Assembly: GCA_965262115.1 (NCBI GenBank) | Contig: OZ253496.1 | Location: forward strand, 1,604,447 to 1,668,446 | DNA: 64,000 nt | Source of the DNA: Nitrospinales bacterium | Lineage (GTDB): Bacteria > Nitrospinota > Nitrospinia > Nitrospinales > VA-1 | Reading direction: 5' to 3' | In this document: positions 2,112 to 64,000 of the stretch, piece after piece | Numbering within the stretch: position 1 is the stretch's first letter | Layout of the letters: every line of letters begins with the position of its first letter | Position numbers and translations under genes: made by a program | The notes under the pieces: model-generated | The model's database searches: none | Seen by the model: only the letters and a program-made list of their open reading frames with translations | What the model was told of the DNA's origin: nothing

Positions 2112-2192
2112 TGTGATATCCCCTCCGCTAAATTCATGCCCGGAACGGGTATGTGATGTCCTCTTCCTTAAACTTCATGCCCGGAACGGGTA
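2112..2192 (+). repeat. Two tandem ~40-bp modules (2112-2151, 2152-2192)
   Basis: TGTGATATCCCCTCCGCTAAATTCATGCCCGGAACGGGTA then TGTGATGTCCTCTTCCTTAAACTTCATGCCCGGAACGGGTA. Confidence 0.9.
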
Positions 2193-2217
2193 GAAGGGGT
2201 AATAAATTGATAGGCAT

Positions 2218-2508
2218 TCAAAGAGTTGTCTCGGCTTGATGGGTTCTTGCCAACTCCCTCCCACGGGAGTGGGCTAGGCTAGGATCGACTTCAGCGCCCG
2301 ACGATGATTCCGGTGCTGTCGTATTGCCCGCTTCGCCACTCAGTTCAGCAGCTTGGTTGACGGGAGGAATAGGACTGGTCTGAGCTTCCTCTGTGGTCGT
2401 GCCTTGAGACTCCGCCGATGCTGCCGGACGAGCGTCTTTATTTCCTTCGCTTGTTTCTGTGGTCTGTTTTTGAGCGGCAGAAAAATTTCCCAGGCTTGAA
2501 ACTTTCAT
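2218..2508 (-). CDS. Low-complexity hypothetical protein, possibly truncated
   Basis: Follows the flaG-like gene on the same strand; S/T/E/A-rich; ends next to the repeat block. Confidence 0.45.
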   Translation of the reverse strand: MKVSSLGNFSAAQKQTTETSEGNKDARPAASAESQGTTTEEAQTSPIPPVNQAAELSGEAGNTTAPESSSGAEVDPSLAHSRGRELARTHQAETTL

Positions 2509-2557
2509 AACGCATCTCCCCTTTATTAGAAAATCTGTTTAGCTTTTCGGCGCAAAC

Positions 2558-2887
2558 CTATTCCGTGATATCGCTAACACTGTCCCGAATAGCGTTTTTC
2601 AATTGTAGTTCTGCTTCAGAGGGAACGGACTTAACCACCTTTTGGGTCTTCGGGTCGATGACCTGGAGAACCACATCATTGTTCTCCGTGACCGAAAATT
2701 TTCTTTGTCCGCTGCTTGCCTCTGCTAAAACCTTGGCTTGAGCAGACAGGTCAACAGAGTCTCCTGCTGATTTTAGTGCAGGAGCTGCAACTGACTTAGA
2801 CCCCGTGTCCCCCGAAGAGGGCTGCGGTTTGGATGTAGGAGCTTTCGGATTTCCAGCTGCGTTAACGGCCTGGCTATCCATGTGCAT
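2558..2887 (-). CDS. FlaG-family protein
   Basis: C-terminal FSVTENNDVVLQVIDPKTQKVVKSVPSE resembles the FlaG domain. Confidence 0.65.
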   Translation of the reverse strand: MHMDSQAVNAAGNPKAPTSKPQPSSGDTGSKSVAAPALKSAGDSVDLSAQAKVLAEASSGQRKFSVTENNDVVLQVIDPKTQKVVKSVPSEAELQLKNAIRDSVSDITE

Positions 2888-3205
2888 TTCCTCTACTCTT
2901 TATTAATAAGAGCACTCTTTAAACTATTGAAAAAAGGATATATTTCCTTATCCCCTTGCGTGGTGCATTTTTTGCCCAGTACACGCATTCTTCTTAACGG
3001 TAACTTGAGGATTAACTTTAGAAAAACATTAAAGAAATACAGTGAAATCGTGCCCTATTTTTGGATAAGGTCTTTGCGGGCTCGATAAGGCTTGAATTGA
3101 ACCTCTTTAGCAGTTATGATACCGGCTTGAAAAATAATTGAAAACAAAGTGGTTCGGGGAGTTTTATCTGAATTTATAGGGTCTTGTAACGCCGTTTATT
3201 GTGGA

Positions 3206-4954
3206 ATGAAAGAATTTTGTAAAATCCTGAAATATGCCAGGCCGTATGCCAAAAGCCTCATTTTCGCGTTTCTTTGCCTGGCTTTGACCTCGTTGATCAA
3301 CCTGGTATTGCCTTTGATTGTCCGCAATATGATCAACGCTTTGATCGTATTAAAAAACAGCGAGGTGCTGGATGGCCTGGCATGGGATTTAATCATCATC
3401 ATTGGTCTGCAGGCTGCGTTTGCGGTCACGCATAATTATATTTTTGGTTTCGTGGGTCACAGGATGACCACGGATTTTCGCATCGAATTTTTTGCCCATA
3501 TTCAATCCCTTTCATTGCGCTTTTTTCAGGAACGCCGGGTGGGAGAAATTTTATCCCGCATGAGTAACGATATATCTGTGATCGAGAATGCCCTGGTGAC
3601 TATTCCTGTTGCCCTGCTACGCCAGAGCATCACCTTGCTCGGGGCCATGACGATCATTCTGTATCTGAATTGGAAATTGACCGGACTCATTTTACTTATA
3701 CTGCCTCCCCTGATGATTTTTGCGCGGGTGTTTGGGCGACGGTTAAAAATGTTTTCGGAAAAACTGCAGGATCAAGTGGCGCAGGCGGTGGTGGTTCTTG
3801 AGGAAGTGATATCGTCTATTAAAATTGTCAAGTCCTTCACCCGCGAGCCTTATGAGCGCAACCGTTTTCAGGGCAAAATTGAAACGGCCTTTGAAAGAGC
3901 GGTGGACAAACTCAAAGTGTCTGCTTTTTTTGGTCCGTCCATACTCGGGCTCACTTTTTTGGTTTCCGCATTATTGATCTGGTATGGCGGATATCAGGTG
4001 ATGCAAGGGACGACGACCCCTGGCGAACTGGCGGCTTTTTTCCTGTACGCCCTGATCATTGCGGGACCGATCGGAACGTTTGTCCGGTTGTATACGCAGA
4101 TTCAGGAAGCCTCGGGTTCCATCTGCAGGGTCTACGAGATTCTCGATACCCAGCCGATGATTCAAAATCCGGAGAACCCGGTCGCGGTTGGGAATTTAAT
4201 GGGACGCATTCAATTCGAAAATGTTTCTTTCGGTTATCGGGACACTGCGGAGGTGATTCATGATGTCAGCTTTGATGTGCTCCCGGGGCAGACCGTTGCT
4301 CTGGTTGGTCCCAGTGGGGCCGGCAAGTCCACCCTCATCAAACTGTTGTTCCGCTTCTTCGATCCGTATTCCGGGGCCATTCGTCTGGACGAACACGATA
4401 TCCGCACTCTGGACCGGCGAAGTTTTCTCAGCCAGATTGCTCTGGTTCCCCAGGAAACGCTATTGTTCGGGGGAACAGTGAAGGAAAATATTCTTTATGG
4501 CAAGCTCGATGCGACTGAGGCAGAACTTAAAGAAGCCGCGCAAAAAGCCAACGCGCATGAATTCATCATGAATATGGAAAAAGGTTACGATACGGTTGTT
4601 GGTGAGAAGGGAACAAAACTTTCCGGGGGAGAAAGGCAGAGGATCGCCATTGCCAGGGCCATCTTAAAAGACCCGAAAATTCTGGTTCTGGATGAAGCGA
4701 CTTCTTCTTTGGATAACCGGTCCGAATCCCTCATTCAGGATGCTTTGGAAACTTTAATGGCCCACCGCACGACTTTTGTCGTCGCGCATCGCCTGAGCAC
4801 CATCCATAAAGCGGATCAGATTATGGTTCTGGATAAGGGAAGCATTGTTGAAGCGGGTCAACACGAGGACTTGATGAATAAAAAGGGCCTGTACCACAAC
4901 CTGTATACTTTGAAAATGCTCGAGCCTACCGCGCATGAAGGAGTGGATTTATAA
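3206..4954 (+). CDS. ABC exporter, fused TMD-NBD (MsbA-like)
   Basis: Hydrophobic N-terminal half; Walker A GPSGAGKST, LSGGERQR signature, ILVLDEATSSLD. Confidence 0.92.
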   Translation: MKEFCKILKYARPYAKSLIFAFLCLALTSLINLVLPLIVRNMINALIVLKNSEVLDGLAWDLIIIIGLQAAFAVTHNYIFGFVGHRMTTDFRIEFFAHIQSLSLRFFQERRVGEILSRMSNDISVIENALVTIPVALLRQSITLLGAMTIILYLNWKLTGLILLILPPLMIFARVFGRRLKMFSEKLQDQVAQAVVVLEEVISSIKIVKSFTREPYERNRFQGKIETAFERAVDKLKVSAFFGPSILGLTFLVSALLIWYGGYQVMQGTTTPGELAAFFLYALIIAGPIGTFVRLYTQIQEASGSICRVYEILDTQPMIQNPENPVAVGNLMGRIQFENVSFGYRDTAEVIHDVSFDVLPGQTVALVGPSGAGKSTLIKLLFRFFDPYSGAIRLDEHDIRTLDRRSFLSQIALVPQETLLFGGTVKENILYGKLDATEAELKEAAQKANAHEFIMNMEKGYDTVVGEKGTKLSGGERQRIAIARAILKDPKILVLDEATSSLDNRSESLIQDALETLMAHRTTFVVAHRLSTIHKADQIMVLDKGSIVEAGQHEDLMNKKGLYHNLYTLKMLEPTAHEGVDL

Positions 4955-5002
4955 TTCCGTTTGCAAAAATAGGATCGAGTTTTGAATTAATGGCGGAGGG
5001 GG

Positions 5003-5416
5003 TTATTCTCCCGGGTCGGCGCCAATTAAAAATCCGATCAAGTGAGCTTTTTTCTCTGTGTCACCACGATAATAAGTGCGCACCAATCTCTGAATCAGCT
5101 CATTTAACGTCGGGTCTTCTCCGTAAGTTTCTATAGCCTCGTTGACACAGGGCTCTTCACCGCCGGGAGCGTGTTGCGTTTTCTTGATAGGCCCCTTCCC
5201 CGTTAGCAGCCAGATTATATTGAGATCCGTGTGTTGATAAAGTTTTGCGATCGTGTCTGCCGAAGGTAAAGACTTGTTATTCTCGATATCTGATAAAGAA
5301 CCTTGGGAGATTTTGATCAATCTTGCCAACTCGAAAGATTTCAGTGGCAAAGATTTTCTCCACTGGCGGAGTCGGGACCCTAGAAATTTAGCTGTTCCTG
5401 ATTTTTTTTCTTGCAT
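5003..5416 (-). CDS. XRE-family HTH transcriptional regulator
   Basis: ELARLIKISQGSLSDIENNKSLP helix-turn-helix and NIIWLLTGKG; start taken at MQEKK. Confidence 0.8.
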   Translation of the reverse strand: MQEKKSGTAKFLGSRLRQWRKSLPLKSFELARLIKISQGSLSDIENNKSLPSADTIAKLYQHTDLNIIWLLTGKGPIKKTQHAPGGEEPCVNEAIETYGEDPTLNELIQRLVRTYYRGDTEKKAHLIGFLIGADPGE

Positions 5417-5790
5417 TATACGGCATACCAAATTATGATTGACAATGTCTAATTGCGGCCTTGAAAAATTTAAGGTCCTCCGAAGCCTACAGTTAAGTTC
5501 CTGGCGAATACCATTTATGTGCCAATTATGTGCCAAAAACGCGATATTATTCTAGTCCTATAGGAAAACTCAAGAACCTGATTCCCCCATTCTTCAGCGT
5601 ATAACCAGGTTCGAGCGGGAAAGCGTAAGATCAAAATATTGGAAGGATATCCAACCCTGCAATCGTTTGTACTTCTATAATTCCCCAAAATATTGCAACC
5701 GTCAATCTTTTTTCTGGTTTTTGGCGTTTTAAAATTTTTACATGGATGTAAAGGAAAATATGGCGAGGCGGAAGGTGTTTATGGATGTAT

Positions 5791-6069
5791 CTAAAAGTCC
5801 AGAGGTAAGGAGGAATTTTTGGGTAGAAGGATTTGGAAAAAACCTGCTTCTTCCTGAAAGAAATAATTTTCTACATTTAAAAGCACAATAAAAGGAAAAA
5901 TTTCTGGAAACGGATTCCCCCAGACTTCATGCGCGTTGCTGACCATTCCTTCGTCCCAAATATTCAATCCATATTTGGAGAAAGACCAGAAATAGGCCGC
6001 CAAGGCCAGATAGAGTAGAGAGACCCGGCCCCATCGTTTGACAGCGGTCTGTTCAGAAGGATTATTCAT
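5791..6069 (-). pseudogene. N-terminal remnant of a membrane protein (GT-C-like LNIWDEG motif)
   Basis: One TM segment plus WDEG, then the sequence loses protein-like character; directly downstream of nagZ. Confidence 0.35.
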
Positions 6070-6071
6070 TT

Positions 6072-7151
6072 TTATTCTTTGAAAAACGCCCGCATCTCCC
6101 GGGCGAGACTCTGGTTTTCCGCAAGAATATTTTCAAAATTCAGATCGTCGTTTTTCGGGGCTTTCAGTTTTTCTTTCACCTTGAAAATTCGAGCCAGAGA
6201 TTGCTCGATATTGGCGCGGGGAATTCTTCCGCTTTCAATGCCGTGAATCATCGAATCCTGAAGGGTGGTTACTTTTTTCAGATCGTGGCAAATGAGAAAC
6301 ACATCGATGCCGGCCTGGGTTCCCAGTTCAGGGATGGACTCCAGTTTATCTTCGATGGCCTGCATCTCCAGATCGTCTGACATAATCAGGCCTTCAAAGT
6401 GCAGAGAGTTCCTCAGCACATCATTCATAATAGAGTGGGAAAACGTAGCGGGGCGCTCGGCATCCCAGGCCGGGTAGACCACATGCGCCGTCATGATAAC
6501 TTCCAGTCCCTGCTTGATGGCATGGGCGAAGGGGATCAATTCGGTTTGTTCCAATGACTCCCGTGTTTGCTCAACTCTAGGCAGAGTGAGATGCGAATCC
6601 TGCGAGGTGTCCCCATGTCCGGGAAAATGTTTGCCCACAGGAATGACCCCGGCGTCATAAAATCCGCGAATCACTTCGGCCCCCAAACGCGCCACCTTTC
6701 CCGGGTCGCTGTCCAGAGCCCTGTGCCCAATTATAGGATTATCGGGGTTGGAGTGGACATCAAGAACCGGTGCGTAATCCATATTAACCCCGACCGCGCG
6801 CATTTCTCTCCCCATTGCCAGTCCGAACCGGTAAGCGAGGTCCTCCGAGTTGGCCTGCCCCAGGCACGACATGGGGGGGAATTGGGTGAAAGGTTCACCG
6901 AGCCGGGCCACCCTGCCGCCTTCCTGGTCCACCGAAATGAAAAGCGGGGGGATTTCTGCATTATTAGCGGCCAGTGACTGCAGGTCGGTTATCAATCGCC
7001 GTAGCTGGTCGGGATTTTTATAATTGCGCTCGAACAAAGTCAAACCGCCAATGCCCTGCTCAACAATCAGTTCTTCGGTGCGGGCGTTGAGGGAGGTCCC
7101 CTCAAATCCTGATACAATCATTTGGCCGGTCTGTTGTTTCAGCGAAAGCAA
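6072..7151 (-). CDS. nagZ: Beta-N-acetylhexosaminidase (GH3)
   Basis: SVDQEGGRVARL, KHFPGHG and IMSDDLEM motifs. Confidence 0.93.
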   Translation of the reverse strand: MLSLKQQTGQMIVSGFEGTSLNARTEELIVEQGIGGLTLFERNYKNPDQLRRLITDLQSLAANNAEIPPLFISVDQEGGRVARLGEPFTQFPPMSCLGQANSEDLAYRFGLAMGREMRAVGVNMDYAPVLDVHSNPDNPIIGHRALDSDPGKVARLGAEVIRGFYDAGVIPVGKHFPGHGDTSQDSHLTLPRVEQTRESLEQTELIPFAHAIKQGLEVIMTAHVVYPAWDAERPATFSHSIMNDVLRNSLHFEGLIMSDDLEMQAIEDKLESIPELGTQAGIDVFLICHDLKKVTTLQDSMIHGIESGRIPRANIEQSLARIFKVKEKLKAPKNDDLNFENILAENQSLAREMRAFFKE

Positions 7152-8536: not shown

Positions 8537-8879
8537 CCCTCTAGCGAGGGATGCAACGAGCGGCTGACACTCGCTCCCCTCCCGAGCCATAAAACCGCAA
8601 AAATGATTCCCTCCCTTCATAGGGAGGGATTAGGGAGGGTTGGCTTGTCATGCTGAGGCCCTCGAAGGGTGCCCCTTCCGTTCCCTGTGCCAAACCTGTA
8701 AAATCCCTCCTTAAAAAAAATATACAGAGAGAAATTCTGGAAAATGCTTATAATATGCGTGAATGATTTGGAGAAGGTCTGCCTATAGTAATATTATTTT
8801 CACTTGAGAAAATTGATAATAAATACCTTAAAATTAGCTCTTCTATTCTAGAACCAAAATTTTTTAACGTCTTTTGTTA

Positions 8880-9950
8880 ATGAAAAAACTAAATGTTTTA
8901 TCTTTGTTTTCTGGTGGTGGTGGCCTAGATTTAGGGTTTGCTGCTGCCGGATATACTATATTTGCTTCTATTGATATTGATGCTTATTCTTGCAGTACTT
9001 TAAGGCTCAATGCTGGGAAAAAGAAATTTTTTGATCATTTGAATGTTACCCAAGCCGATTTGACCAAAACAAACTCCGATAAATTATTATCAGGATTTAA
9101 AACAAAAAAGAAAAAGATTGACGTTGTTATTGGAGGTCCACCCTGCCAAGCATTTTCTGTCTTTGGAAGAAGAGGAGGGGTAAATGATCCTCGCGGAAAC
9201 CTTGTGTGGGATTTTATTAGAATTATTAAAGAAGTTGACCCAACAGTATTCATTTTTGAAAATGTTGTGGGCTTAAAAACTATACATAATGGGACTCTTT
9301 ATCAAAACCTACTTGAATCATTAACCATTGATGGGAAGTATGTCGTTTCTGACCATAACTATGAAATGGCAAATTTTGGGATACCTCAATTTAGAAACAG
9401 AATATTTTTTATTGGTTGGAAAAAAGGTAAAAGAATTCCACCTATGGTTCAAAGCCATGGGGAAGTAGGTTTATTTGATATTAATCCCTTTGTGACAGTG
9501 AAAAAGGCTTTGAAAGGGTTACCTAAGTTGGAAATTTCCAAAAGTTTCCCTAATCATGTTGGGCGAAAGCATAGTTTGAGAATCATCAATCGATATAAAA
9601 ACTTAAGGTTTGGTGAGCGAGATTCAATTACCAGAATCAACAAATTAGATCCGAACCGACCAAGCTTTACAATTATTGTTGGCTCTGATGCTGGTGGAGG
9701 TAAAGGGCATGTTCATCCAATAGAACCTAGAGAGGTTACACCAAGAGAATCCGCCCGTGTTCAGACTTTTCCGGACTGGTGGAAATTTTCTGGCACAGGA
9801 AGGCACGTAATAAGACAAGTTGGGAATGCGGTCCCTCCATTATTTGCTGCCCAACTTGCTGAACATATTAAAAAATATGTGTTTAAATGTAAAAAAATAC
9901 AAAATTACGATGACCTGTTAGATAAATTAGAATTAAACCACTTAAAATAA
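8880..9950 (+). CDS. DNA (cytosine-5)-methyltransferase
   Basis: LFSGGGG, GGPPCQAFS, FENV, QFRNR and VGNAVPP motifs; AT-rich. Confidence 0.95.
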   Translation: MKKLNVLSLFSGGGGLDLGFAAAGYTIFASIDIDAYSCSTLRLNAGKKKFFDHLNVTQADLTKTNSDKLLSGFKTKKKKIDVVIGGPPCQAFSVFGRRGGVNDPRGNLVWDFIRIIKEVDPTVFIFENVVGLKTIHNGTLYQNLLESLTIDGKYVVSDHNYEMANFGIPQFRNRIFFIGWKKGKRIPPMVQSHGEVGLFDINPFVTVKKALKGLPKLEISKSFPNHVGRKHSLRIINRYKNLRFGERDSITRINKLDPNRPSFTIIVGSDAGGGKGHVHPIEPREVTPRESARVQTFPDWWKFSGTGRHVIRQVGNAVPPLFAAQLAEHIKKYVFKCKKIQNYDDLLDKLELNHLK

Positions 9951-11450
9951 ATGCCAATAAAGGATTTATTCAGCCATAAAATTCATTCTGGAGGAGATGA
10001 TTGGCCGGATAAACTGATAGAACTGGCATTTTTATTTAATGAGTTTGACGGTCAACCTTATGACCGAGATAAAATTGAATCCCGCCTAAAAGAAATTAGC
10101 CCTAGATATTCCTTTGTTGCCAGGGACGCGTCAAAATTTAGAGATGAATATAGTGCATATCCAGCATATTTTGGTTTATATCACCAAGTGCTAGAAAATG
10201 GTGTTTGGATAATAAGGTTGAGTGATACTGCTAAAAGGTATTTGATACAAGAAGAACCCGATGTAGGTGCTTTTTTAAGAATTCAAATGACCTTGTTCCA
10301 ATACCCAAATGGTATGGGAGCAACATATTATTCGGGAGGCGATGGAATTCGAGTCCAGGCAAATACATGTAGAAAAACTCTAGGATATATAAATGAGAAT
10401 ATCCATTTATCTCCCCTACGTTTAATAGTGATCGCCCTAAAGGCTGACTCGAAAATCAGAAAATGTTCCTTATTTGACGCGCAAATTTCCTATAAAGAAA
10501 TTTTTGCACTAGCCAATGATCCCAATGTGAATACTTTAACTTTGCCTTCTATTGGTGATGTGGAAAAGTCAATTAACAAGATTAGAGACGGAAGGATAGA
10601 GCCGCCTCAACGATTTGAAAGCAGATTTCATCTGTTAAAGCATTTGGAGATATTTGAAATTGGCAATCAACAAATTCGCCTTCGCAAACCGGCAAATGAA
10701 TTGGACGAGGCGGATATTAAGTCCAAATTTGAAACCATTAGCCAAATAACCCATAAGTTTAAGGGGTTTGATAGAGTGGGTAATAAGGAAAAATTAGTTG
10801 AAAAAATAAAGTCGGGAGAATGGTCAAAATACTTTGATGGGTTAAACACATTAAAGCTTGAACAGGTAATGATTTTAGAATCAGATGTCATCAAAAAAAC
10901 AGAAGAAATGTCCACGAGGGAAAAAATAATTGATATCCAAATTACCCCAACTAAATATCCACTGTCAAATAGAGGGGAAAGACCTTCTGCCCCAAAACCA
11001 ACTAATCGAAAAAACGAGTTTGCTGACCCTGAAGTCACTCGAATTAAGAGGGAGCGTAGAAATTTGGCGCATAAAATTCTTGTAGATAATATGCATGAAT
11101 TATTAAAACAGCGTGGTGCTAGACCGATGGAAAATGCGCATATTGATTTATATGGAAAAATACCAGATGACGGTTCTTTTTTGTTCGAGATGAAAAGTAC
11201 GGGCGAAAAGCTTATTGATCAAGTTATAAAAGGAATTGGGCAACTTTATGAATATAGATATAGGTATAAAGATAAATTGAATAAAGACGTGAAATTATGT
11301 TTAGTTTTAGAAAAAAGTCCCGATGACTTTCCTTGGTTAATTGATTATTTATGCGAGGATAGAAAAATCAATCTTTGTTGGTTTGACGAAAAAGGAAATT
11401 TATCTTATCCCGAAAATTGTAAAGAGGCTATGCAGGAATTACTGCGGTAA
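9951..11450 (+). CDS. Putative cognate restriction endonuclease (C-terminal PD-(D/E)xK-like domain)
   Basis: Abuts the MTase stop; HIDLY...FEMKS motif near the C terminus; same AT-rich composition. Confidence 0.65.
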   Translation: MPIKDLFSHKIHSGGDDWPDKLIELAFLFNEFDGQPYDRDKIESRLKEISPRYSFVARDASKFRDEYSAYPAYFGLYHQVLENGVWIIRLSDTAKRYLIQEEPDVGAFLRIQMTLFQYPNGMGATYYSGGDGIRVQANTCRKTLGYINENIHLSPLRLIVIALKADSKIRKCSLFDAQISYKEIFALANDPNVNTLTLPSIGDVEKSINKIRDGRIEPPQRFESRFHLLKHLEIFEIGNQQIRLRKPANELDEADIKSKFETISQITHKFKGFDRVGNKEKLVEKIKSGEWSKYFDGLNTLKLEQVMILESDVIKKTEEMSTREKIIDIQITPTKYPLSNRGERPSAPKPTNRKNEFADPEVTRIKRERRNLAHKILVDNMHELLKQRGARPMENAHIDLYGKIPDDGSFLFEMKSTGEKLIDQVIKGIGQLYEYRYRYKDKLNKDVKLCLVLEKSPDDFPWLIDYLCEDRKINLCWFDEKGNLSYPENCKEAMQELLR

Positions 11451-12044: not shown

Positions 12045-13517
12045 TTGTCCCACTATTATTTTTTTCTCATCATGACAAATCAAATATCCCTCAACCGTTT
12101 AGCAGAAACACTCATTCAAGAATCGAGCACTCCATTCAGCACGGAAGATTTTGCCAAGAGTCTGGAAGGGCGCTGGCAAAAGCAAGTTTCTGATTCCGCC
12201 ATGAAGCGGTTGAAGAAAGTTTTGCTCAACCATTCATCCTTGATCGGGATTCATGACAGAAACTTCATTCCCTTTCGCGCGGTGGTCGAAAAAATCGGTC
12301 ATGTTTCGTTGTCGGTGCAGTTAGGTGCCTGGGAGTTGAAGCAGGGCATCCTGATTCCCGGACATCGCTTGATTCCATTTTTGCCGCCGAACCTTGAAGA
12401 GAGTGAGTTGACGTTTCAGGATGCGGATGGGAATAAAATCCCAAAACTGAAAAGATCCTATTTTATTCAGAATGTTGTCCCTTTTTATCAGTACTGCTCG
12501 CGTTTTCCGGAAGAGATCAAGATCAATGAATGGATTCCCGGAAAAAGTTGTATGACGGTTACGGTCTGGGACATGCAATCCTTATATAAAAACTTCTCAT
12601 CCCGACCGGGGGATGCTCTGTTGATCGATCTGGTTGACTATGAAAAGGGGATCTATCGGGTTCGCCCCTATTCTTCGCGGCAATACCGGTTGGACCGGTT
12701 GCGCATGCGGGCGCTCTATATCGCTTTGGCGACCCAGATGGACCCACTTTGTCAGGATGAAAAATTTTGTTCGACCGGACTGGAAAAACAGTTATTGCGA
12801 ATTCTCTTTTCTATGGACGCGAAAGTGTTTCGCGAGGTGGATGTTTTTTCTGTGACGGAATTTTTGGAGTCCCTCAAGGAGTGGACGGTTGTTGGGCGTG
12901 AGGCTGGCGGGGTGCAAATGGTACCTGCATGGCAAACCGATCCCGGGCCTTTCATTCGTGCGAATGCCAACCGGGCCGTGAATGGCGAATTGGGGTCGCT
13001 GAACAAAATATTTAAGGATTTACAGTTGGCTTTTGATGCGTTGGAATTCAAGTCTATGCTTTATACGGTCATGGCTTCGGACAAGTACAAACTGGAGGCA
13101 GTCTTTTTTCTGCTGTTCGGGGGTCAGGGAGATTTGTTTACCGATAAGAAACAGCATGAGGCGTTTTACGGTTATCTGCGCGAACTGTTGTTCAAAATTT
13201 GCGAGGACCTTAAAACCCGCGAGTCGCATTTGATCGCGAATTTGCGGGAACAATGTGTGGATATCAAGTTCAGTCTGGTCGGGGTATTACGGTTTCTCGA
13301 AGACAGGGAAATTGGATTGGAAGATTTGCCTGCGGACTTATTGAACCAGATCATCGAGCTGGATCATTTTTGTACCGATACCCTGCATCGGTTTGCCGAG
13401 AGGGAATGTCCGCCAGACCTGAAATTTGTCCGTGATTTGCGGGTGGCTTTGAAAGTGGTGCTGCCGCAACTGTCAATAGTGGAAGAGGAAGTCTATTCCC
13501 GCCTGGCTATTTATTAG
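12045..13517 (+). CDS. Hypothetical protein (~490 aa)
   Basis: Long ORF with typical composition; no motif recognised with confidence. Confidence 0.75.
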   Translation: MSHYYFFLIMTNQISLNRLAETLIQESSTPFSTEDFAKSLEGRWQKQVSDSAMKRLKKVLLNHSSLIGIHDRNFIPFRAVVEKIGHVSLSVQLGAWELKQGILIPGHRLIPFLPPNLEESELTFQDADGNKIPKLKRSYFIQNVVPFYQYCSRFPEEIKINEWIPGKSCMTVTVWDMQSLYKNFSSRPGDALLIDLVDYEKGIYRVRPYSSRQYRLDRLRMRALYIALATQMDPLCQDEKFCSTGLEKQLLRILFSMDAKVFREVDVFSVTEFLESLKEWTVVGREAGGVQMVPAWQTDPGPFIRANANRAVNGELGSLNKIFKDLQLAFDALEFKSMLYTVMASDKYKLEAVFFLLFGGQGDLFTDKKQHEAFYGYLRELLFKICEDLKTRESHLIANLREQCVDIKFSLVGVLRFLEDREIGLEDLPADLLNQIIELDHFCTDTLHRFAERECPPDLKFVRDLRVALKVVLPQLSIVEEEVYSRLAIY

Positions 13518-13528: not shown

Positions 13529-13611
13529 TACCCCTCTTCGGGGCATGAAGTACCCGTGCCGGGCATGAAGGTTAAGGGAGAGGACATCACAACTGATGAG
13601 GGGTCATAACA
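13529..13611 (-). repeat. Nested modules: 41-bp module (13551-13591) inside a 42-bp module
   Basis: Removing 13551-13591 rebuilds TACCCCTCTTCGGGGCATGAAGACTGATGAGGGGTCATAACA. Confidence 0.85.
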
Positions 13612-24379: not shown

Positions 24380-24474
24380 TCTTGTCATTCTGAAGAGCGT
24401 ACGCGATGAAGACGTGATATTTCACCAAAACTTTCGTGCCCTGAAAGGGTAATCTAGGGTTACGCAAAGGTCTC
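24380..24474 (+). repeat. Composite repeat: GTCATTCTGA arm, 39-bp module (24413-24451) and TTACGCAAAGGTCTC end
   Basis: Near-identical block at 54452-54542. Confidence 0.8.
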
Positions 24475-29802: not shown

Positions 29803-30960
<1,158 letters not shown>

Positions 30961-50733: not shown

Positions 50734-52685
50734 TTGTTTTGCGCCGTAGCCTGTACGCTTGCCCTGACCGTTGGGGAGGTGCTGGCGCAATCCGTCACCA
50801 TTGACGAGGGTGATACTCACACGACTCGGATTGTATCAATGCGCACTGACGATGCCATCATCAACAATGGCACAATAATGACGCCGGATTCCTCCGGCAT
50901 TTTCTCGACGGGTGATGGCGCGACCATCACCAACATCGGCACAATAGAAGCGAGATGGGTTCATTCTGAGGGCATTTACTCGGATGCCGCTAACGCGGTG
51001 ATCAGCAATAGCGGCACAATAACGGCGACGGGCGAAGCCATTTCCGCACATGGCGATGACATGACCATCACCAGCAGCGGCTCAGTATCAACCACAGGGG
51101 TTGTTGCTCACGGTATTTTTGTGGGTGGTGATGACGCGAGCGTAATCAGCAGCGGCTCAATCTCAACGTCAGGCGGGGATTCTGAGGGTATTTTTTCGAG
51201 GGGTGATAATACGATGATCACCCATAGCGGTTCAATCTCAACCACAGGCTCTACATCTGAAGGCATTTTCTCGCAGGGTGTCGGCGCAACTATTACCAGT
51301 AGCGGCTCAATCACAACCGCAGGGATAGAGGCTCACGGCATTTTATCGGTGGGCTCTGGCGCGGCCATCACCAATGACGGCACAATCACAACGACTGGCG
51401 ATGACGCTCACGGTATTTTTGCCGGGGGTGGTGGCACGGAGATTACCATCAGCGGCCGTGTGTCTGTCAGTGGCGAGGGTTCCTATGTGGTGAAAGGCTC
51501 CGATGCGGGAGATCAAACGCTGAACCTGCTTCGTGGGGCGATGACGAACGGGGAGTTTAGTCTGGGAGAAAGCAGCGGCGATAATGATATTGCCAACATT
51601 TATGTGGATGACATCTCAAGGTCGTCGACTTACACTATCGGCGGGGCCGAGACCATCAACCTGTTCAGAGGAGAGGGAAATGCGCAGATATCTCTTCCAC
51701 TGCCGTGGGTAGCGAATGCTGATGGCGATACTGCGGCTGTGCTCGACCCGACGGGCTCGTCCGCCGAACGCATGGTGCTGGGTACGGCTACAAGTCAGCT
51801 CCACCAGTTGGTGTTTCAGCGGTTGGCAGACACGCGGCAGTCGGCGGGGATGGGTAGCGGTGCGTCTGATGGGACAACCGGCGGGTCGGGCTGGGGCACT
51901 TTTTTTGGTGCCGGGCGCGAGCGTGACGCTGACGGCCTGGCGCAGGCTTGGTCGAGCCACCGTTTTGGCGCGGTCGGGGGCTACGACATCCGCCTGGACA
52001 GCGGCCAGCGTGTTGGTCTGTTTGCCGGGGGCAGCCGTGGGCACATTGAAACCGATGCCAGATCGATTGAGACCGACACCAACAGCGGGTTTGTCGGCGC
52101 TTACGGGCAGAGCGGATTCTGGGTGGTGGCTGGGGCTTGAGCGGATCGGTGGTCGGCGGCTATGAAAGCCATAACAGCGACCGCTCCGTGTTCGACAACC
52201 TCGAAGGGGATGGAACCGCTGACGGGGGTTACCACAGCTTCTATGTCAGTCCGTCTCTGGCCCTTGCGTGGTACCATGATCTGGGAGACGGCCTTGAGTT
52301 CCGGCCCAGCGCGCAGATTGCTTATACTACGGTGAGCGGCACGACAAACTCCGATTTACGCTTCGATGACCGGGATGTGCATATTTTTGACGGCCGCCTG
52401 CAACTGGCGCTGGCGCAATCCTACGACCGGGGAGAGATTGAGTTGCGTGGCGGCGCTACGCTCACCCATTATGGTGATGACAATGTCGATGTCAGCCTGG
52501 GCGGAGGTGATCCGATCTCTTACCGGGTGCCGGGTAACGAGACCATCCCCGCCGGGTATGTGGGTGCCAGTCTGCGTTATGTTGTCAGGGACAATGTCAA
52601 CCTGGTTGGCGATGTGGAATATCACAATGGCACGGGCGGCACGGAATCCATATCGGGTTATCTGGGGCTGAGGGTTCGGTTTTAG
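50734..52685 (+). pseudogene. Autotransporter with G/S/T-rich repeat passenger, frameshifted at about 52120
   Basis: Repeats of ITSSGSISTTG..AHGIF; beta-barrel ending GYLGLRVRF in the second ORF. Confidence 0.8.
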
Positions 52686-52792: not shown

Positions 52793-52983
52793 GGAGATTC
52801 TTCGTCACGTTGTTCCTCAGAATGACAAAATGGCCTTGTATTGTCATGCTGAGCTAGTGATATTTGACCTTTGAATTCTTGCCCCGTAGGGGTATGTGAT
52901 ATCCTCTTCCTTAAACTTCATGCCCCGTAGGGGTATCTCGAAGCATATCGCTTTTCTGCTTTATAGACTTACGCAAAGGTCTC
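52793..52983. repeat. Composite repeat with tandem modules 52856-52894 and 52895-52935
   Basis: Direct repeat of the 50310-50455 scaffold plus one extra 41-bp module. Confidence 0.85.
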
Positions 52984-53041
52984 CCTGACAATGGGGGACT
53001 TTTATGAATTCCAATCCACACCCCTCCGCGGCTACGCCTTG

Positions 53042-54331
53042 TGATCTTCCCCTGTTTTAGTGGACAGTTAGTTAAGAGGCATAGGCCTGTTTCTCGAATT
53101 CGGCAGGGCTGAGATAGCCGAGATATTAGTGACGGCGTTGCCGATTATAAAACACTTCGATATATTCAAAAATATCCTTCTTTGCTTGCTGACGGGTTTT
53201 GTAGTTCCGGTTATGAATGAGTTCCACTTTGAGAGTATGGAAAAAACTCTCCGCCACGGCGTTATCCCAGCAATCGCCCTTCCGGCTCATACTGCACTCT
53301 ATCCCATGAACATTGAGCAAGGCTTGAAAATCGTTGCAGGCATATTGAACCCCCCGGTCAGAATGGTGAATCAATCCCGGTTTCATGCCGCCGTTCTTCA
53401 TTGCCATATTTAAAGCTCTCATTACCAACCAACGGGTTATCCAACGATCCATGGCCCAACCAATAACTTTACGGTGGAATAAATCCAGCGTCACCGCAAG
53501 GTATAACCAGCCCTCTTGAGTCGGGATATAGGTGATATCCGAAACCCAGCATTGACCGGGCTCAGCAACATTAAACCGCCGTTGCAGTTTGTTTTTTGCC
53601 ACCGGGTGATTATGTTTGGAATCGGTTGTCACCCTGAACTTTCTTTTGTGCTTGGCAACGATTCCATGCTCGCGCATAAGACAGGCAATACGATGCCTGC
53701 CAATGGCATATCCCTTGTCTTTCAAGTCCTCATGAATTCTGGGACTGCCATAAGTCTGGCGACTCTTCTTATAAACGGTTTTGATCTCATCAACCCATCG
53801 CTGCTTCTCACGGCTCCTCAGGCTCTCGGGGCGGCTCAGCCAGGCATAGAACCCACTTCGTCCCACTTCCAGAACCCGGCACATCGGGCTTACCGGAAAT
53901 GCTTCTCGATGATCCCGTATAAACCGATATCTCATTGGGAACCCTTCGAGTACCCCTTCGTGGCATGAAGACAAATGAAGAGGACATCACAAAGATAACT
54001 GCCGCCTTTTTTAATATGTCCCGCTCCATACGAAGGCGAGCGTTTTCTCGCCGCAACTGCTGCAACTCATCTCCCGGCTTAAGCTGTCCTTTGCCGGGAA
54101 ACGCATTCCCCTGATCCTCCTCATACTCCTGTTTCCAGCGACCCAGAAGGGCAGAACGGATTCCCAGATCCCGGGACACCCGGGCAATGCTATCGCCTAC
54201 TTCAATAACCAATCGAACCGCTTCTAACTTGAATTCTTTACTGAAACTCCTGCGTTTGGTTCCCATAAAAACACCTCCAAAAGTGTATTATCCACACTTT
54301 TCGATGTGTCCACCAATTCAGGGGAAGATCA
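53042..54331 (-). mobile_element. IS3-family element copy 2 (1290 bp) with module at 53951-53991
   Basis: Both IRs present; essentially identical to copies 1 and 3; one substitution in the module hairpin. Confidence 0.95.
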
Positions 54332-54542
54332 AGATGCTTCGAGATACCCCTACGGGGCATGAAGTTTAATGGAGAGGGTATCACATACCCCTACGGGGCA
54401 AGAATTCAAAGGTCAAATCACTAGCTCAGCATGACAATAAAAGGCTATTTTGTCATTCTGAGGAGCTATTGCAACGAAGACGTGATATTTCACCAAAACT
54501 TTCGTGCCCTGAAAGGGTAATCTTGGGTTATGCAAAGCTCTC
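54332..54542. repeat. Composite repeat with modules 54345-54385, 54386-54422 and 54481-54519
   Basis: Reverse-orientation relative of the 50206 and 52793 scaffolds; ends TTATGCAAAGCTCTC. Confidence 0.85.
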
Positions 54543-54866
54543 CTGATAGGAGGGCTAGATATGGAGGCACACGACTGGCGCAACCTGTTCAATCGCTTTG
54601 ATTTATGGGGCGTCGATCAAATGCTCTCAAACATTATGTTTTACCTGGGCTGGTTGAGCATTTTCCTGGCCTGGGTCTGGTTATATAAAGTTGGCGGACC
54701 AACCCCAAAAAGGGATAAAATGATTCTAAATACCTGATCGTAAAAAATCATTAATGGACATAAACAGGCTCTTAAATTATCCTAAGCAAAAATAATTTGT
54801 GATTTTTGTTTTAAATCGATAACTCTAAAATTTTTGCCTCATCAACAATTTTTTCAGGAGGCTCCC

Positions 54867-59680: not shown

Positions 59681-61066
59681 TCAGGCATGGCTCTTATTTT
59701 TCATGAGATAAAGGGTTCGTTCAGAATCGCCGACTTTTTCAGACTTTATGATATTGAAAAACTGGAGGAATTCGCTTTCAAACGCTTCCTGCGTATAGTC
59801 GGGAAAGATGTCTTCCCTCGAGGCCAGTAGTTTTTGCGCCATCGGGTCTGACTTTGGAACAAATTCGATGATCAGAGATCGACAGGTGTTTCTGAAAAAC
59901 CCGGCTATCTTAGCCAACGGAACATTGTTGGATATGGCCAGATGATGGATCAGAGCTAAGGCGAGTATGGTTTCTGTCGGCCCTCTTTCCTGAAGGGACA
60001 TTCTTTCTTTATTCTCCCACCCAATACTAGGGCTGGGGTTGTTGAGATCAACCCATAGGGGAAGCAGATTTTTCTCTCCATTTTTCAGCGTTTGAAGATA
60101 ACTGGTCTCAACACAACCGGGGTCGGTGTCCATTGAAATCGTGGTTATGCCTCGGTCACTTGCAATCCTGCTGAAAACTCCTGTGTTGGCTCCCAAATCC
60201 CAAACGGTACCGGGTTTTAAAAAGTCCAGATAGCCTGCCACCTGTTTGATTTTTTGCTCCAAAAATTTTGGGACATGGGCACATTCGCTGTAATAGTTTA
60301 CCCATTCGCTTTTCCCAGGTCTCCAATACATATTTTTAATGGCAGATTCCAAACTATCTGTTAGTCCAAGAAGGGACTTTCTACTCATGGTCTGGTTGCT
60401 GGCAGCTGTTGAAGCTTGCTCGACATGTTTTGTTTGGTATCTGGCATGCAAATGAATATGCGTTGCCAAATGAAAATTGAAGTACGTCCTTCCAGGAAGT
60501 AACGATGAAACCAAGTCCAGTGGGATGCCGCTAATATATTCGCGTAACATCCGTCCGAGACTTATGTCCTTATAACTCATCAACGCCAGAGGGCCGAGAA
60601 AGTTTTCGCAGAACTGTTTGTAACCAGCCCAAGGTTCCCCCTCTTGATACTTTTCAAAAGAAAGAGTGTCGATCAATATAGGTTGTCCCTGGTAGAATTG
60701 GATGTTGTAAGCATTGGCATCCTTGAGAATCATGCCATGACTCAAGGTACGCTTTAAAATAGTCAGGGTTAGCAGAGCAGCATTTTTAAACTGAGTGAAA
60801 CACCATTCGTAGGGATAGGATATAAATGGAATAGGCTCTGGTCGAATAGTCTGATAGCCATCAGAAAAGGGAAAGTGGCTCGCGTCAACAGTTTCATGAG
60901 GGATCAATAATCTTTTGTTACGGAGCTTTTCATATAGCCCCGATTCTAAAAAATAATCAAAATTTTCTTTATAAACTGGATTGATTTGACGGTAACAGAC
61001 TCCTTCCCAATAAAAAACAAAGCCGCTTGGGTCACGAAAGGAACTGTTCTCAGTTTCTGGGATCAT
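59681..61066 (-). CDS. SAM-dependent methyltransferase with N-terminal SFRDPSG domain (NoeA-like)
   Basis: SFRDPSG, SYPYEW, LKDANAYN, VWDLGANTG, LALIHHLAI. Confidence 0.8.
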   Translation of the reverse strand: MIPETENSSFRDPSGFVFYWEGVCYRQINPVYKENFDYFLESGLYEKLRNKRLLIPHETVDASHFPFSDGYQTIRPEPIPFISYPYEWCFTQFKNAALLTLTILKRTLSHGMILKDANAYNIQFYQGQPILIDTLSFEKYQEGEPWAGYKQFCENFLGPLALMSYKDISLGRMLREYISGIPLDLVSSLLPGRTYFNFHLATHIHLHARYQTKHVEQASTAASNQTMSRKSLLGLTDSLESAIKNMYWRPGKSEWVNYYSECAHVPKFLEQKIKQVAGYLDFLKPGTVWDLGANTGVFSRIASDRGITTISMDTDPGCVETSYLQTLKNGEKNLLPLWVDLNNPSPSIGWENKERMSLQERGPTETILALALIHHLAISNNVPLAKIAGFFRNTCRSLIIEFVPKSDPMAQKLLASREDIFPDYTQEAFESEFLQFFNIIKSEKVGDSERTLYLMKNKSHA

Positions 61067-61286
61067 TTGTGTTGTTTTTGCCAACAAGATTCTTTACAAA
61101 GCTTTTAAATTTTCCCCAATAGATTTTCAAGGTGAAAAGAAATCCGAGGAGGCTCGCAATTAAGAGATGCAAAACCATGCTGCCGGTTCCAGGGTCAAAA
61201 TAGGCGTGCACATCAGGAGTCCAGCCCAAAAGACAAATTAAGGTGAGAAAAAGAACCAATGATTTTTTTGGGTGGGTACGAAGCAT
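61050..61286 (-). CDS. Small exported/membrane protein with AYFDPGTGS motif
   Basis: Signal-like helix, DPGTGS, second TM; overlaps the methyltransferase start. Confidence 0.7.
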   Translation of the reverse strand: MLRTHPKKSLVLFLTLICLLGWTPDVHAYFDPGTGSMVLHLLIASLLGFLFTLKIYWGKFKSFVKNLVGKNNTNDPRN

Positions 61287-61699: not shown

Positions 61700-61943
61700 A
61701 TTTATGATCCTTTCAAAAATCTATTTTGTTTGATATGAGTCTGTACACCGACTGGCTTGTTCGAATTTGTGTGACTGCAGAACTTTCTTAGTTTCCCGGG
61801 CCAGGGTTCTCAGTCATCTTCGTCAAGATTGTGCCGGAGAGGTTGGCTCCTGTCAATATGGCCTCTCGAAGGATCGATCTCGCAAATTCGGCTCTATCCC
61901 CTACCGGACGTGGCCCGGTTTTTCACTGCCTCGACGGCGAGTC

Positions 61944-62035
61944 GTGGTTTTCATCGGCCCTGCGCCGAGCAGTGGTTTTCATCGGCCCTGCGCCGAGCAG
62001 TGGTTTTCATCGGCCCTGCGCCGAGCAGTGGTTTT
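61944..62035. repeat. 28-bp tandem repeat x3 plus a partial copy
   Basis: GTGGTTTTCATCGGCCCTGCGCCGAGCA exact at 61944, 61972 and 62000. Confidence 0.95.
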
Positions 62036-62057
62036 AGTTCGCCCCTCCGCGTAGGAG

Positions 62058-62103
62058 TGGAGCCAGCGGGCGGAATTGAACCGCCGACCTACTGATTACG
62101 AAT
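62058..62103 (-). tRNA. 3' fragment of tRNA-Thr(CGT), probable att site; not a complete tRNA
   Basis: Minus strand ATTCGTAATCAGTAGGTCGGCGGTTCAATTCCGCCCGCTGGCTCCA has the anticodon loop, T arm and CCA; no D arm or 5' acceptor strand upstream. Confidence 0.85.
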
Positions 62104-62303
62104 TACAAATTGGCGTTTTTAGGAAGTTTTTGATTTCAGGCTGGCTTCCTCTATCTGTTTATTTTTTCAAGGTTTTTAGTAAACCATTATTTCCGCCAAT
62201 TCCGTTAAATCTGCTCCGGTAGGAAATTTCTATCATAAATTTATCATAGTCAAGGTCGGCTTCCGTCCTACTGGCTTTTCAATATAGGCCGCTGATTTCA
62301 CCA

Positions 62304-62780
62304 CTATAGGGAAAGCTTGTGCCATGGACATTTAGATGGTTTTTTTTTATTTAATTTTGGCTTCAAGTCATCATAAAGTGTCCTTTCATGGCAACGAGGA
62401 CAATTGGCTGGTCTACTGGATTTTGATTCAGGATCAATAAGATACTTTTTCCAACCCAAATATAAATTTAATGGATTTAGGTTTTCGTTCTTACAATCTT
62501 TGTTTATAGATCGTCCCCCTGAATGATGGCCGGTTCCTCCACCGTAAAAACCAAACATGTCAGCAATCAGGTCGCCAATTCTTGTGGCAAACCGTTCACT
62601 TTTTCCAGTGTTTCCTCCAACATATAAAATTTTATTTGTTATTTTGGGCTCTCCTCGCCATTTCTCTTTAGAAACCACGTATACACCATTATCTTTCGCA
62701 GGCCATTCTTGAGATTTATTCATGCAATTCTCTAATAAAACTTTTACTTTAAAAGGACCTATCCATTGGGGGCTCGGCAT
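62304..62780 (-). CDS. GIY-YIG-like nuclease-fold protein
   Basis: GVYVV...ILYVG spaced motif, downstream R; AT-rich. Confidence 0.55.
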   Translation of the reverse strand: MPSPQWIGPFKVKVLLENCMNKSQEWPAKDNGVYVVSKEKWRGEPKITNKILYVGGNTGKSERFATRIGDLIADMFGFYGGGTGHHSGGRSINKDCKNENLNPLNLYLGWKKYLIDPESKSSRPANCPRCHERTLYDDLKPKLNKKKPSKCPWHKLSL

Positions 62781-62863
62781 AACAATTCTGAGGCAAAGAT
62801 TTATATTTTGTGGAGATTTCCATTATAGTTACTATCAAGTCCTAACTATATAAAAATAGGAAT

Positions 62864-64000
62864 TGATCTTCCCCTGAATTGGTGGACACATCGAAAAGTG
62901 TGGATAATACACTTTTGGAGGTGTTTTTATGGGAACCAAACGCAGGAGTTTCAGTAAAGAATTCAAGTTAGAAGCGGTTCGATTGGTTATTGAAGTAGGC
63001 GATAGCATTGCCCGGGTGTCCCGGGATCTGGGAATCCGTTCTGCCCTTCTGGGTCGCTGGAAACAGGAGTATGAGGAGGATCAGGGGAATGCGTTTCCCG
63101 GCAAAGGACAGCTTAAGCCGGGAGATGAGTTGCAGCAGTTGCGGCGAGAAAACGCTCGCCTTCGTATGGAGCGGGACATATTAAAAAAGGCGGCAGTTAT
63201 CTTTGTGATGTCCTCTTCATTTGTCTTCATGCCCCGAAGGGGTACTCGAAGGGTTCCCAATGAGATATCGGTTTATACGGGATCATCGAGAAGCATTTCC
63301 GGTAAGCCCGATGTGCCGGGTTCTGGAAGTGGGACGAAGTGGGTTCTATGCCTGGCTGAGCCGCCCCGAGAGCCTGAGGAGCCGTGAGAAGCAGCGATGG
63401 GTTGATGAGATCAAAACCGTTTATAAGAAGAGTCGCCAGACTTATGGCAGTCCCAGAATTCATGAGGACTTGAAAGACAAGGGATATGCCATTGGCAGGC
63501 ATCGTATTGCCTGTCTTATGCGCGAGCATGGAATCGTTGCCAAGCACAAAAGAAAGTTCAGGGTGACAACCGATTCCAAACATAATCACCCGGTGGCAAA
63601 AAACAAACTGCAACGGCGGTTTAATGTTGCTGAGCCCGGTCAATGCTGGGTTTCGGATATCACCTATATCCCGACTCAAGAGGGCTGGTTATACCTTGCG
63701 GTGACGCTGGATTTATTCCACCGTAAAGTTATTGGTTGGGCCATGGATCGTTGGATAACCCGTTGGTTGGTAATGAGAGCTTTAAATATGGCAATGAAGA
63801 ACGGCGGCATGAAACCGGGATTGATTCACCATTCTGACCGGGGGGTTCAATATGCCTGCAACGATTTTCAAGCCTTGCTCAATGTTCATGGGATAGAGTG
63901 CAGTATGAGCCGGAAGGGCGATTGCTGGGATAACGCCGTGGCGGAGAGTTTTTTCCATACTCTCAAAGTGGAACTCATTCATAACCGGAACTACAAAACC
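62864..64000 (+). mobile_element. IS3-family element copy 3 (runs off the window) with intact, empty module at 63204-63244
   Basis: Left IR at 62864; identical orfA and orfB sequence. Confidence 0.95.

Follow-up and report, generated by a model that had tools for sequence, protein, structure and literature searches.

The window considered here, that is, the whole analysed stretch of 64,000 nucleotides (nt) from a Nitrospinales bacterium (contig OZ253496.1), carries three copies of an IS3-family insertion sequence, one IS110-family element, repeats resembling miniature inverted-repeat transposable elements (MITEs) and many copies of a short unit, which is the subject of this text. The unit has the form 5′-N-GTGAT, a pyrimidine-rich arm of about 20 nt, C-N′ and TGCCC-N-GNA-N′-GGGTA-3′, and its length is 39–41 nt. 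Three sequence subtypes are distinguished: C-type (CGTGAT..CGTGCC.., 39 nt), T-type (TGTGAT..CATGCC.., mostly 39–41 nt) and A-type (AGTGAT..CTTGCC.., 39 nt). The comparisons given below support a non-autonomous module of about 40 nt that inserts precisely and without target duplication; as a mobile DNA unit, it is among the smallest seen.

First of all, the window contains 13 exact matches to the motif GTGAT-N(15-25)-TGCCCNGNANGGGTA, whereas 100 dinucleotide-preserving shuffles of it yield none, and the hairpin core alone, GCCCNGNANGGG, has 20 matches where 0.74 are expected. A covariance model, built from 124 distinct units and run unfiltered over the window, identifies 20 complete copies (E 3e-14 to 2.4e-8) plus about 7 split or truncated ones. 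In a preliminary description of the window 23 unit starts had been listed; by motif and covariance model, each of them carries a unit or a recognisable portion of one, and the model adds one complete, diverged unit at 32203–32242 on the minus strand (34.7 bits). For comparison, the neighbourhood of the FtsK gene (window 41140–43470), whose closest relatives (83–94% identity) are metagenome-assembled genomes (MAGs) of Nitrospina/Nitrospinota, was taken from four relatives, namely L001 (LS_NOB), L003 (OZ252246.1), L004 (OZ242182.1) and L005, together with a second syntenic block from LS_NOB, L125. A cyanobacterial origin of the window was considered and rejected, as HIP1 is found in it a single time and FtsK assigns it to Nitrospinota. 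Synteny with these relatives is clear over 22.6–53 kb and 0–23 kb of the window, at 80–97% nucleotide identity.

Along the window, two complete T-type units on the plus strand, 2112–2151 (40 nt, 47.3 bits) and 2152–2192 (41 nt, 53.1 bits), form a zero-spacer tandem, inserted where a recipient unit, now degenerate (2085–2111 and 2193–2201), has the loop of its hairpin. On the minus strand, a complete T-type unit at 13551–13591 (54.1 bits) adjoins the 3′ fragment of another, its hairpin part, at 13529–13550 (a weak match, E 0.39). A complete 39-nt C-type unit is located at 24413–24451 (plus strand) in a MITE arm at GAAGA|ATC, and the diverged unit at 32203–32242 is also present in L001. At 39220–39258 (minus strand) the covariance model places a complete A-type unit in the GAGCT| site of a MITE, and close by a C-type unit in a MITE arm (39316–39395, plus strand) is split after its base 9 into 39316–39324 and 39366–39395, with a complete unit nested between the parts at 39325–39365. 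Nesting recurs in the inverted doublet that begins at 45993: the left arm is a complete unit (45993–46032, minus strand), and the right arm (46044–46123, plus strand) is split into 46044–46065 and 46107–46123, with a 41-nt T-type unit lying antisense inside it at 46066–46106.

Further along, the 3′ fragment of a reversed unit (47719–47735, minus strand), at whose place L001 has an intact reversed unit, adjoins a complete diverged unit at 47736–47775 (plus strand). Two complete tandem units on the minus strand (50220–50260 and 50261–50301) lie between the ends of a recipient C-type unit, 50211–50219 and 50302–50310. A complete A-type unit at GAGCT|TCTCGAAG occupies 50368–50406 (plus strand); in the paralogous MITE copy the A-type unit (52856–52894, plus strand) is followed with zero spacer by a T-type unit (52895–52935), while the copy at 50368 has the A-type unit alone. 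A tandem of a T-type unit (54345–54385) and an A-type unit (54386–54422) on the minus strand, and a complete C-type unit in a MITE arm (54481–54519, plus strand), complete the series outside the insertion sequences. The units are found on either strand, as the preliminary description had stated, and also antisense within one another.

The three copies of the IS3-family element (1290 nt with the unit) are more than 99.6% identical and are located at 29412–31890 (copy 1), from 62864 to the window end at 64000 (copy 2) and at 53042–54331 on the minus strand (copy 3); the copy at 29412 is absent from L001. In all three, a 41-nt unit is found in the overlap of orfA and orfB, 14 nt past the AAAAAAG slippery site, and since all three carry it, the unit-bearing IS3 has kept transposing. 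The unit is complete in copy 2 (63204–63244, plus strand) and in copy 3 (53951–53991, minus strand), and in copy 1 its 5′ 36 nt (29752–29787, plus strand) are separated from the remaining GGGTA (30977–30981) by the IS110-family element, which splits the hairpin. The 41-nt insert alters the OrfA tail and could have an effect on −1 frameshifting.

The IS110-family element (29788–30976, minus strand, 1189 nt, with a junction ambiguity of 1 nt) has a frameshifted DEDD transposase with the domains DEDD_Tnp_IS110 and Transposase_20, the frame being broken near codon 240. It is inserted in the hairpin of the unit of IS3 copy 1, at GCCCCGAAG^GGGTA, and IS3 copy 2 carries this unit uninterrupted. That is to say, the unit serves as an IS110-type target, as do repetitive extragenic palindromic (REP) sequences, which serve as targets of IS110-family elements according to Tobes & Pareja 2006 as that work is cited in PMC3116915. 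The IS110-family element uses the unit as a target and is not a plausible mobiliser of units of 40 nt.

The evidence that carries the precise insertion comes from sites that are filled in one genome and empty in another. At window 32141/2 the sequence is GTGACGAAG-A-ATCTCGCC, without a unit (plus strand, GACGAAG(A)|ATCTCG, in a MITE arm), and at the same place L001 reads CGTGATATTTTTCCTTAACCTTCGTGCCCCGAAGGGGTA, where a 39-nt unit occupies L001 2630–2668. The difference is 39 nt with a one-base (A) junction ambiguity, and the flanks are about 97% identical over about 330 nt; the event could be a gain or, equally, a loss. The second case is the 41-nt T-type unit at 46066–46106, antisense within a C-type unit, whose counterpart in L003 (14349–14387) is intact and has the canonical 39 nt. 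The third is the IS3 insertion. Two metagenomic copies of a related IS3 (L122 and L123), whose OrfB is 83% identical to that of the window IS3, are exactly empty at the orfA/orfB overlap; their junction reads ...GCAGTCATCTT|CTCGAAGGATTCC... and OrfA terminates in IFSKDSQ*. The preliminary description had proposed that removal of the unit restores the end of OrfA, and this proved correct, the related copies having ...ATCTT|CTCGAAGG... and the end ...IFSKDSQ*. The IS3 insertion lies within coding sequence, its flanks have no repeat relation, and it is a gain because the outgroup IS3 copies are empty.

Moreover, the units at 13529–13591 lie in a unique intergenic region, and its orthologues in L125 and L003 do not have them. 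In the common syntenic region of about 22 kb, the window has about 14 units (split copies counted), L003 has 12, L001 has 6, L004 has 1 and L005 has none; a copy number that ranges so widely, between 0 and about 14, is what an element that has proliferated recently shows. With 76–95% identity, the metagenome contigs orthologous to the window are too distant from it for a comparison at the level of populations. Within the window, the paralogous empty sites named in the preliminary description were confirmed: GACGAAGA|ATCT at 32141/2 and at 52798/9 (minus strand), and CTGAGCT|TGTCGAAG at 38486/7 (plus strand), the last two being paralogous comparisons. Its claim of precise insertion was also borne out, as unit boundaries are constant from the first base N1 to the final A and no duplication is seen, and the homologous or orthologous sites in other genomes, to which it had looked for a decision, are exactly empty or filled.

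The 3′ end of the unit forms a hairpin of 6 bp in which the last 15 nt take part, while the 5′ 24–26 nt are unpaired both in DNA folds and in the alignment. In a sample of 96 copies, anchored on the 5′ part alone with the loop left unconstrained, the triloop is GNA in 95 (GAA 47, GCA 28, GGA 12, GTA 8), and the closing pair is C-G in 58, G-C in 22 and T-A in 6. C(GNA)G is a well-known and very stable DNA mini-hairpin. In the alignment of the 124 distinct units, on which the covariation counts are also based, the closing pair (columns 35:39) is CG in 80, GC in 23 and UA in 8, and pair 31:43 is a G.T wobble in 114 of 124. Since the GNA loop and the G.T wobble exist on the GTGAT...GGGTA strand alone, selection acts on one strand. 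Lone units fold weakly with standard DNA parameters, and inverted doublets fold strongly (−23 kcal/mol, z = −5.3). No terminal inverted repeats were found in the unit, whose ends are NGTGAT and GGGTA. As a side observation, the units at 63204–63244 and 46066–46106 are identical over their first 33 nt and differ solely by a compensatory flip of the closing pair (CCCCGAAGGGG versus CCCGGAACGGG), which hints at an exchange of whole hairpins among units.

A second, putative pairing would bring the two ends of the unit together. The first base (column 1) covaries with the base immediately 5′ of the hairpin foot (column 29), the states being T-A in 61, C-G in 38 and A-T in 5, with 109 of the 124 aligned units paired, and the adjoining pair G2:C28 is nearly invariant. 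The observed covariation score was reached by none of 500 shuffles, and controls in which the columns were slid collapse. Among near-identical units, that is, those whose interiors have at most 3 differences, positions 1 and 29 switch jointly and retain pairing in 109 pairs of units. The signal is real, yet not clean.

The units are found mostly within or beside other repeats. Over about 155 copies, 38 are in MITE arms at GAAGA|ATC (37 C-type, 1 T-type), about 34 in zero-spacer head-to-tail tandems, 9 within the hairpin of a resident unit (..GCC|..|GNAGGGG), 10 antisense next to ..GGCACG|, 12 in the spacers of inverted doublets, 6 (A-type) at GAGCT| sites, with two further GAGCT| copies tallied under tandems, and about 43 in other contexts. 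The MITE-like hosts are palindromic repeats of roughly 130–150 bp with ends like GGAGAGCTTTGCATAA and arms GTCATTCTGAGGA..GACGAAGAATC, which host most of the C-type and A-type units; examples are window 32105–32200, 39259–39440, 50311–50440, 52799–52995 and 54423–54560, and L003 16000–16300.

In 129 distinct contexts, direct repeats of the flanks show no excess for k = 2–5: at k = 2 there are 4 where 6.2 are expected, and at k ≥ 3 there are none. The preliminary description had stated that the flanks share no motif, and this needs correction in one respect, as a weak left-flank tendency G-N-R-B-N was found. Of the 55 distinct left 5-mers, 29 have G at position −5 (background 24%), 41 have a purine and 2 have T at position −3, and 2 have A at position −2; of the 67 distinct right 5-mers, 31 have A at position +1 and 57 have A or T at position +2. 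Taken together, the flanks show a loose preference for G-N-R-B-N|A-W. The unit's own 3′ end, GGGTA, matches G-N-R-B-N, and this fit would explain in a simple way why zero-spacer tandems arise.

The spread of the family was followed by a motif scan over one genome per GTDB species (596 Gb), the counts referring to the matches listed. Among these, every multi-copy locus belongs to Nitrospinota, including Nitrospina sp. LS_NOB, the complete Nitrospinales MAGs OZ252246.1 and OZ242182.1, and others. Matches in other phyla were rejected as family members: they are single, their interiors are unrelated, and a motif with 17 specified bases is expected to give such matches by chance in 596 Gb. One bona fide unit (L024 2268–2309) stands on a contig binned as Candidatus Neomarinimicrobiota, and its left flank of 15 nt is common to the Nitrospina contig L091, so that L024 is probably a mis-binned Nitrospina contig. 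A metagenome scan gave at least 120 stretches, and 102 of those 120 have family-like units. Units occur in independent short-read and long-read assemblies and are therefore not assembly artefacts. In L027 (OZ252246.1), eight units are found within 4 kb (3368–7123), and five of them have a near-regular spacing of 228–282 bp, one orientation and a common flank context, which suggests tandem amplification of a larger composite repeat. The Rfam 15 search gave no match at the gathering score in the whole window, and the tRNA scan gave none either.

Among known systems, the REP sequences and the bacterial interspersed mosaic elements (BIMEs) built from them are alike in several respects: the size class of 20–40 nt, the GC-rich hairpin, the mostly intergenic and clustered location, the lack of target duplication and the targeting by an IS110-family element. 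Inverted doublets of the unit fold to a long hairpin as REPINs do, and such head-to-head doublets are found at window 45993–46123, L003 14298–14387 and L014 7069–7160, with clusters in L027, L041 and L054. REPs are lineage-restricted with very uneven copy numbers (PMC3733652), and the same holds for the unit. However, REPs are palindromic repeats tagged by GTAG/CGTC (PMC3733652), while the unit has no such conserved tag; its pre-stem bases are C-N-T-G (CGTG, CATG, CTTG), of which T-G can pair with the terminal T-A. Only 15 of its about 40 nt are palindromic, and the non-palindromic 5′ arm of 24–26 nt sets it apart from a palindromic repeat. Zero-spacer head-to-tail tandems and nested insertions are common in the unit, and the REP-associated transposase RAYT was not found in about 1.2 Mb around units. 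The preliminary description had contrasted the mobile module with lone REP-sized units, which, it said, are not normally regarded as the mobile unit; mobility of the module stands, and the likeness to REPs and BIMEs is greater than it had allowed, given the inverted doublets and the IS110-family target.

With the IS200/IS605 family and the palindrome-associated transposable elements (PATEs), the unit shares the lack of terminal inverted repeats and of target duplication, a strand-specific subterminal hairpin, and a short left-flank motif related to its own 3′ end. In IS608, a guide next to the foot of the hairpin pairs with the cleavage site, and a comparable pairing is indicated in the unit, between the bases next to its hairpin foot and those at the putative cleavage site. 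The differences are that the unit has one 3′ hairpin instead of different left and right subterminal hairpins, that it is about 40 nt long instead of well over 100, that its target is the degenerate G-N-R-B-N (55 left 5-mers) instead of a fixed tetra- or pentanucleotide, and that the paired bases lie within the unit. MITEs of the DDE type are likewise non-autonomous, multi-copy and intergenic. They end in inverted repeats, duplicate their target and usually exceed 100 bp in length, whereas the unit has neither inverted repeats nor duplication, the identity of its flanks at k ≥ 2 being at or below chance, and the MITE-like repeats of about 130–150 bp here act as its hosts.

The closest described phenomenon is the small dispersed repeats SDR4/5/6 of heterocyst-forming cyanobacteria, very small mobile repeated elements reported by Elhai et al. 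(2008, Genome Res 18:1484), a work that PMC3116915 and PMC2884548 cite. Such repeats reportedly insert exactly and frequently lie within other repeats; some genomes carry many of them while close relatives have almost none, and they are not known to be moved by any particular enzyme. They belong to a different phylum, and their length is reportedly 21–27 nt against 39–41 nt in the unit. In summary, the unit family works like REP/BIME and like miniature IS200/IS605 elements yet fails defining features of both. New here are the restriction to Nitrospinota, the exact pairs of empty and filled orthologous or homologous sites, the covariation that juxtaposes the ends, the weak target motif and the IS110-family element in a unit.

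The reading preferred here is that the units are a lineage-specific, non-autonomous family of single-strand DNA elements, REP-like or IS200/IS605-like in mode, to which a rough probability of 0.5 is given. The unit would move as single-stranded DNA, with the 3′ end of the GTGAT...GGGTA strand folding to the 6-bp hairpin with its GNA triloop. Unit bases 1–2 would pair with the two bases directly 5′ of the hairpin foot (columns 28–29), and the pairs 1–2:28–29 would stack directly on the hairpin 30–35:39–44, so that the first base and the final A come to lie next to each other, as on the two sides of a nick in an otherwise unbroken helix; a tandem or a circle with the junction GGGTA|NG would give rise to this helix, too. 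A strand-transferase acting in trans, the likeliest type being an HUH/Y1 enzyme that acts as RAYT does on REPs or TnpA on the ends of IS200/IS605, would recognise the hairpin and cut and rejoin both ends at its foot. Excision would yield a small circle or a free unit and leave the host resealed exactly, and integration would prefer sites preceded by the loose G-N-R-B-N. The fit of GGGTA to this motif would lead both to zero-spacer head-to-tail tandems and to insertions in or beside resident hairpins.

Several observations weigh against this reading, the search for the enzyme being the first. Stop-to-stop six-frame open reading frames (ORFs) of at least 60 amino acids (aa) were searched by phmmer and jackhmmer with E. 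coli RayT from NC_000913 and with IS200 and IS608 TnpA sequences, in the about 1.2 Mb of DNA around units. No homologue of RayT, IS200 TnpA or IS608 TnpA was found in 73 Nitrospinota loci (about 550 kb) and 102 metagenome unit loci (about 640 kb), and the Y1-HUH gene (TnpA or RAYT) which the preliminary description had thought of beside the units did not come up in this flanking DNA. The genes bracketed by inverted units (methyltransferase, SIS/CBS, MiaB-like, FAD oxidase, DUF484, LRR) include no recombinase, and the families recurring near units (TPR, histidine kinases, ABC exporters, HtrA, LRR) are simply large families; both groups consist of housekeeping genes or large families of paralogues. 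The 1:29 pairing has a thin basis, consisting of one covarying and one invariant pair. Base 1 also correlates with insertion context, so that lineage or target effects are possible, and 88 near-identical pairs of units differ at just one of positions 1 and 29, with pairing lost. The target motif is weak and its contexts are not phylogenetically independent. IS200/IS605 elements are strongly orientation-biased, whereas the unit has no strand bias relative to GC skew (57:52, p = 0.70, with 8-kb skew as a coarse proxy) and TnpA was not found around it. Finally, the sample of units is limited to the matches listed in the collection scans.

Within the window itself, the recognisable transposases are those of one IS3 and one IS110-family DEDD element, and no HUH enzyme was found among the ORFs, which agrees with the preliminary statement that the mobiliser is not in the window. 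The other annotated ORFs are ordinary genes or unknowns without recombinase signatures. Three ORFs (12045–13517, 59681–61087 and 9951–11450) gave no match in Pfam, NCBIfam, PADLOC or PDB. The first was considered as a candidate enzyme and rejected, as it is a conserved Nitrospinota core gene that is present in a unit-poor genome too. This ORF has about 481 aa and 158 database relatives (48–96% identical), all in Nitrospinota; it adjoins a gene of 83 aa, and the neighbourhood of the pair differs in OZ252246.1 (L003).

Other explanations are available. A self-contained one-hairpin single-strand DNA transposon of about 40 nt, with its two ends drawn together by a guide pairing of 2 bp that stacks on the hairpin, and moved by an enzyme unrelated to known Y1 enzymes or by a DNA-processing enzyme of the host, is an unlikely possibility. 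If true, DNA transposition would have gained a new minimal architecture in a one-hairpin transposon of this size.

By gene conversion or homologous recombination, the unit would be an indel that is spread or erased between paralogous larger repeats such as MITE arms and composites. Many copies do stand in recurrent contexts, with 37 C-type units at GAAGA|ATC MITE arms and all nine A-type units, two of which also head a tandem, at a GAGCT| site; the event at 32141/2 versus L001 lies within a MITE and the nested event at 46066–46106 within another unit, and composites such as ..GTGAGCC|unit|GAAGGGGTA recur across several genomes. Gene conversion between repeat copies surely adds to the spread of units inside MITEs. 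As the source of the pattern it is nevertheless improbable: the IS3 insertion is in coding sequence without unit-related flanks, the related IS3 copies being empty; the boundaries of the unit stay identical over 55 distinct left 5-mers; units stand beside unique sequence (L001 8202, window 13551); and conversion cannot account for how a unit first came into each of the dozens of contexts.

Quite improbable is RNA-mediated spread, in which the unit is transcribed and its RNA hairpin is returned to DNA by reverse transcription or RNA-templated repair. The G.U-compatible wobble in 114 of 124 units, the strand-specific covariation and the lack of replication-strand bias would suit RNA as well. However, the two ends are exact and show neither a tail nor a series of 5′ truncations, copies stand in either orientation inside one another, no reverse transcriptase is found among the annotated window ORFs, and C(GNA)G is a very stable mini-hairpin of DNA.

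Double-strand transposition in trans by the enzyme of a resident insertion sequence (DDE, IS110-type DEDD or serine transposase) is highly improbable, in spite of the IS3 and IS110-family elements in the window, the latter inside a unit. The unit has neither terminal inverted repeats nor a target duplication, its ends are unlike those of IS3 or IS110, and the IS110-family element takes the unit as its target in the one case seen; a 40-bp duplex would, moreover, be too short to circularise or to hold two transposase-bound ends. An immobile unit, either an ancestral functional motif (terminator, protein-binding site or RNA element) lost by deletion or an assembly artefact, would agree with the mostly intergenic location and the GC-rich hairpin, but it is largely refuted by the polarity (outgroup IS3 copies and the consensus C-type unit without inserts), by a copy number that falls from about 14 to 0 in one syntenic block, by the unlikelihood of three base-exact deletions without flanking repeats, by the occurrence in both kinds of assembly and by the lack of an Rfam match.

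Should the single-strand reading preferred here be right, about 40 nt with one 6-bp hairpin would suffice for exact movement around a genome. The question of the minimal substrate of single-strand DNA transposition would thereby become sharper, and the meeting of the ends at the foot of the hairpin is a geometry open to test. In Nitrospinota, which are the chief nitrite oxidisers of the sea, the family remodels intergenic regions. Within the window it is inserted in an active IS3, beside the frameshift site of that element, and it is a landing site for an IS110-family element; its pattern of presence and absence could type strains. With the enzyme identified, a compact, exact and duplication-free insertion module could also become attractive as a tool.

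Some features of the window stand apart from the unit. A C-5 cytosine DNA methylase gene is followed by an ORF of 499 aa without family match (together 8874–11450), which is possibly a restriction enzyme; since both genes are absent from the syntenic LS_NOB block (L125), they form a strain-specific island. Several genes are split in two adjacent or overlapping ORFs (18402–19875, 19894–21824, 24586–26065 and 50734–52685); either errors of long-read assembly have introduced frameshifts here, or the genes are pseudogenes. The split PilQ secretin and the split 488-aa gene of the pilus cluster are single genes in LS_NOB (L125), the two ORFs of the split aldehyde dehydrogenase match two halves of one Pfam domain, and the split autotransporter is a single gene of 792 aa in L003. 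Finally, at 61920–62031 there are four head-to-tail copies of a 28-nt repeat (TTTTCATCGGCCCTGCGCCGAGCAGTGG), which has no relation to the unit.

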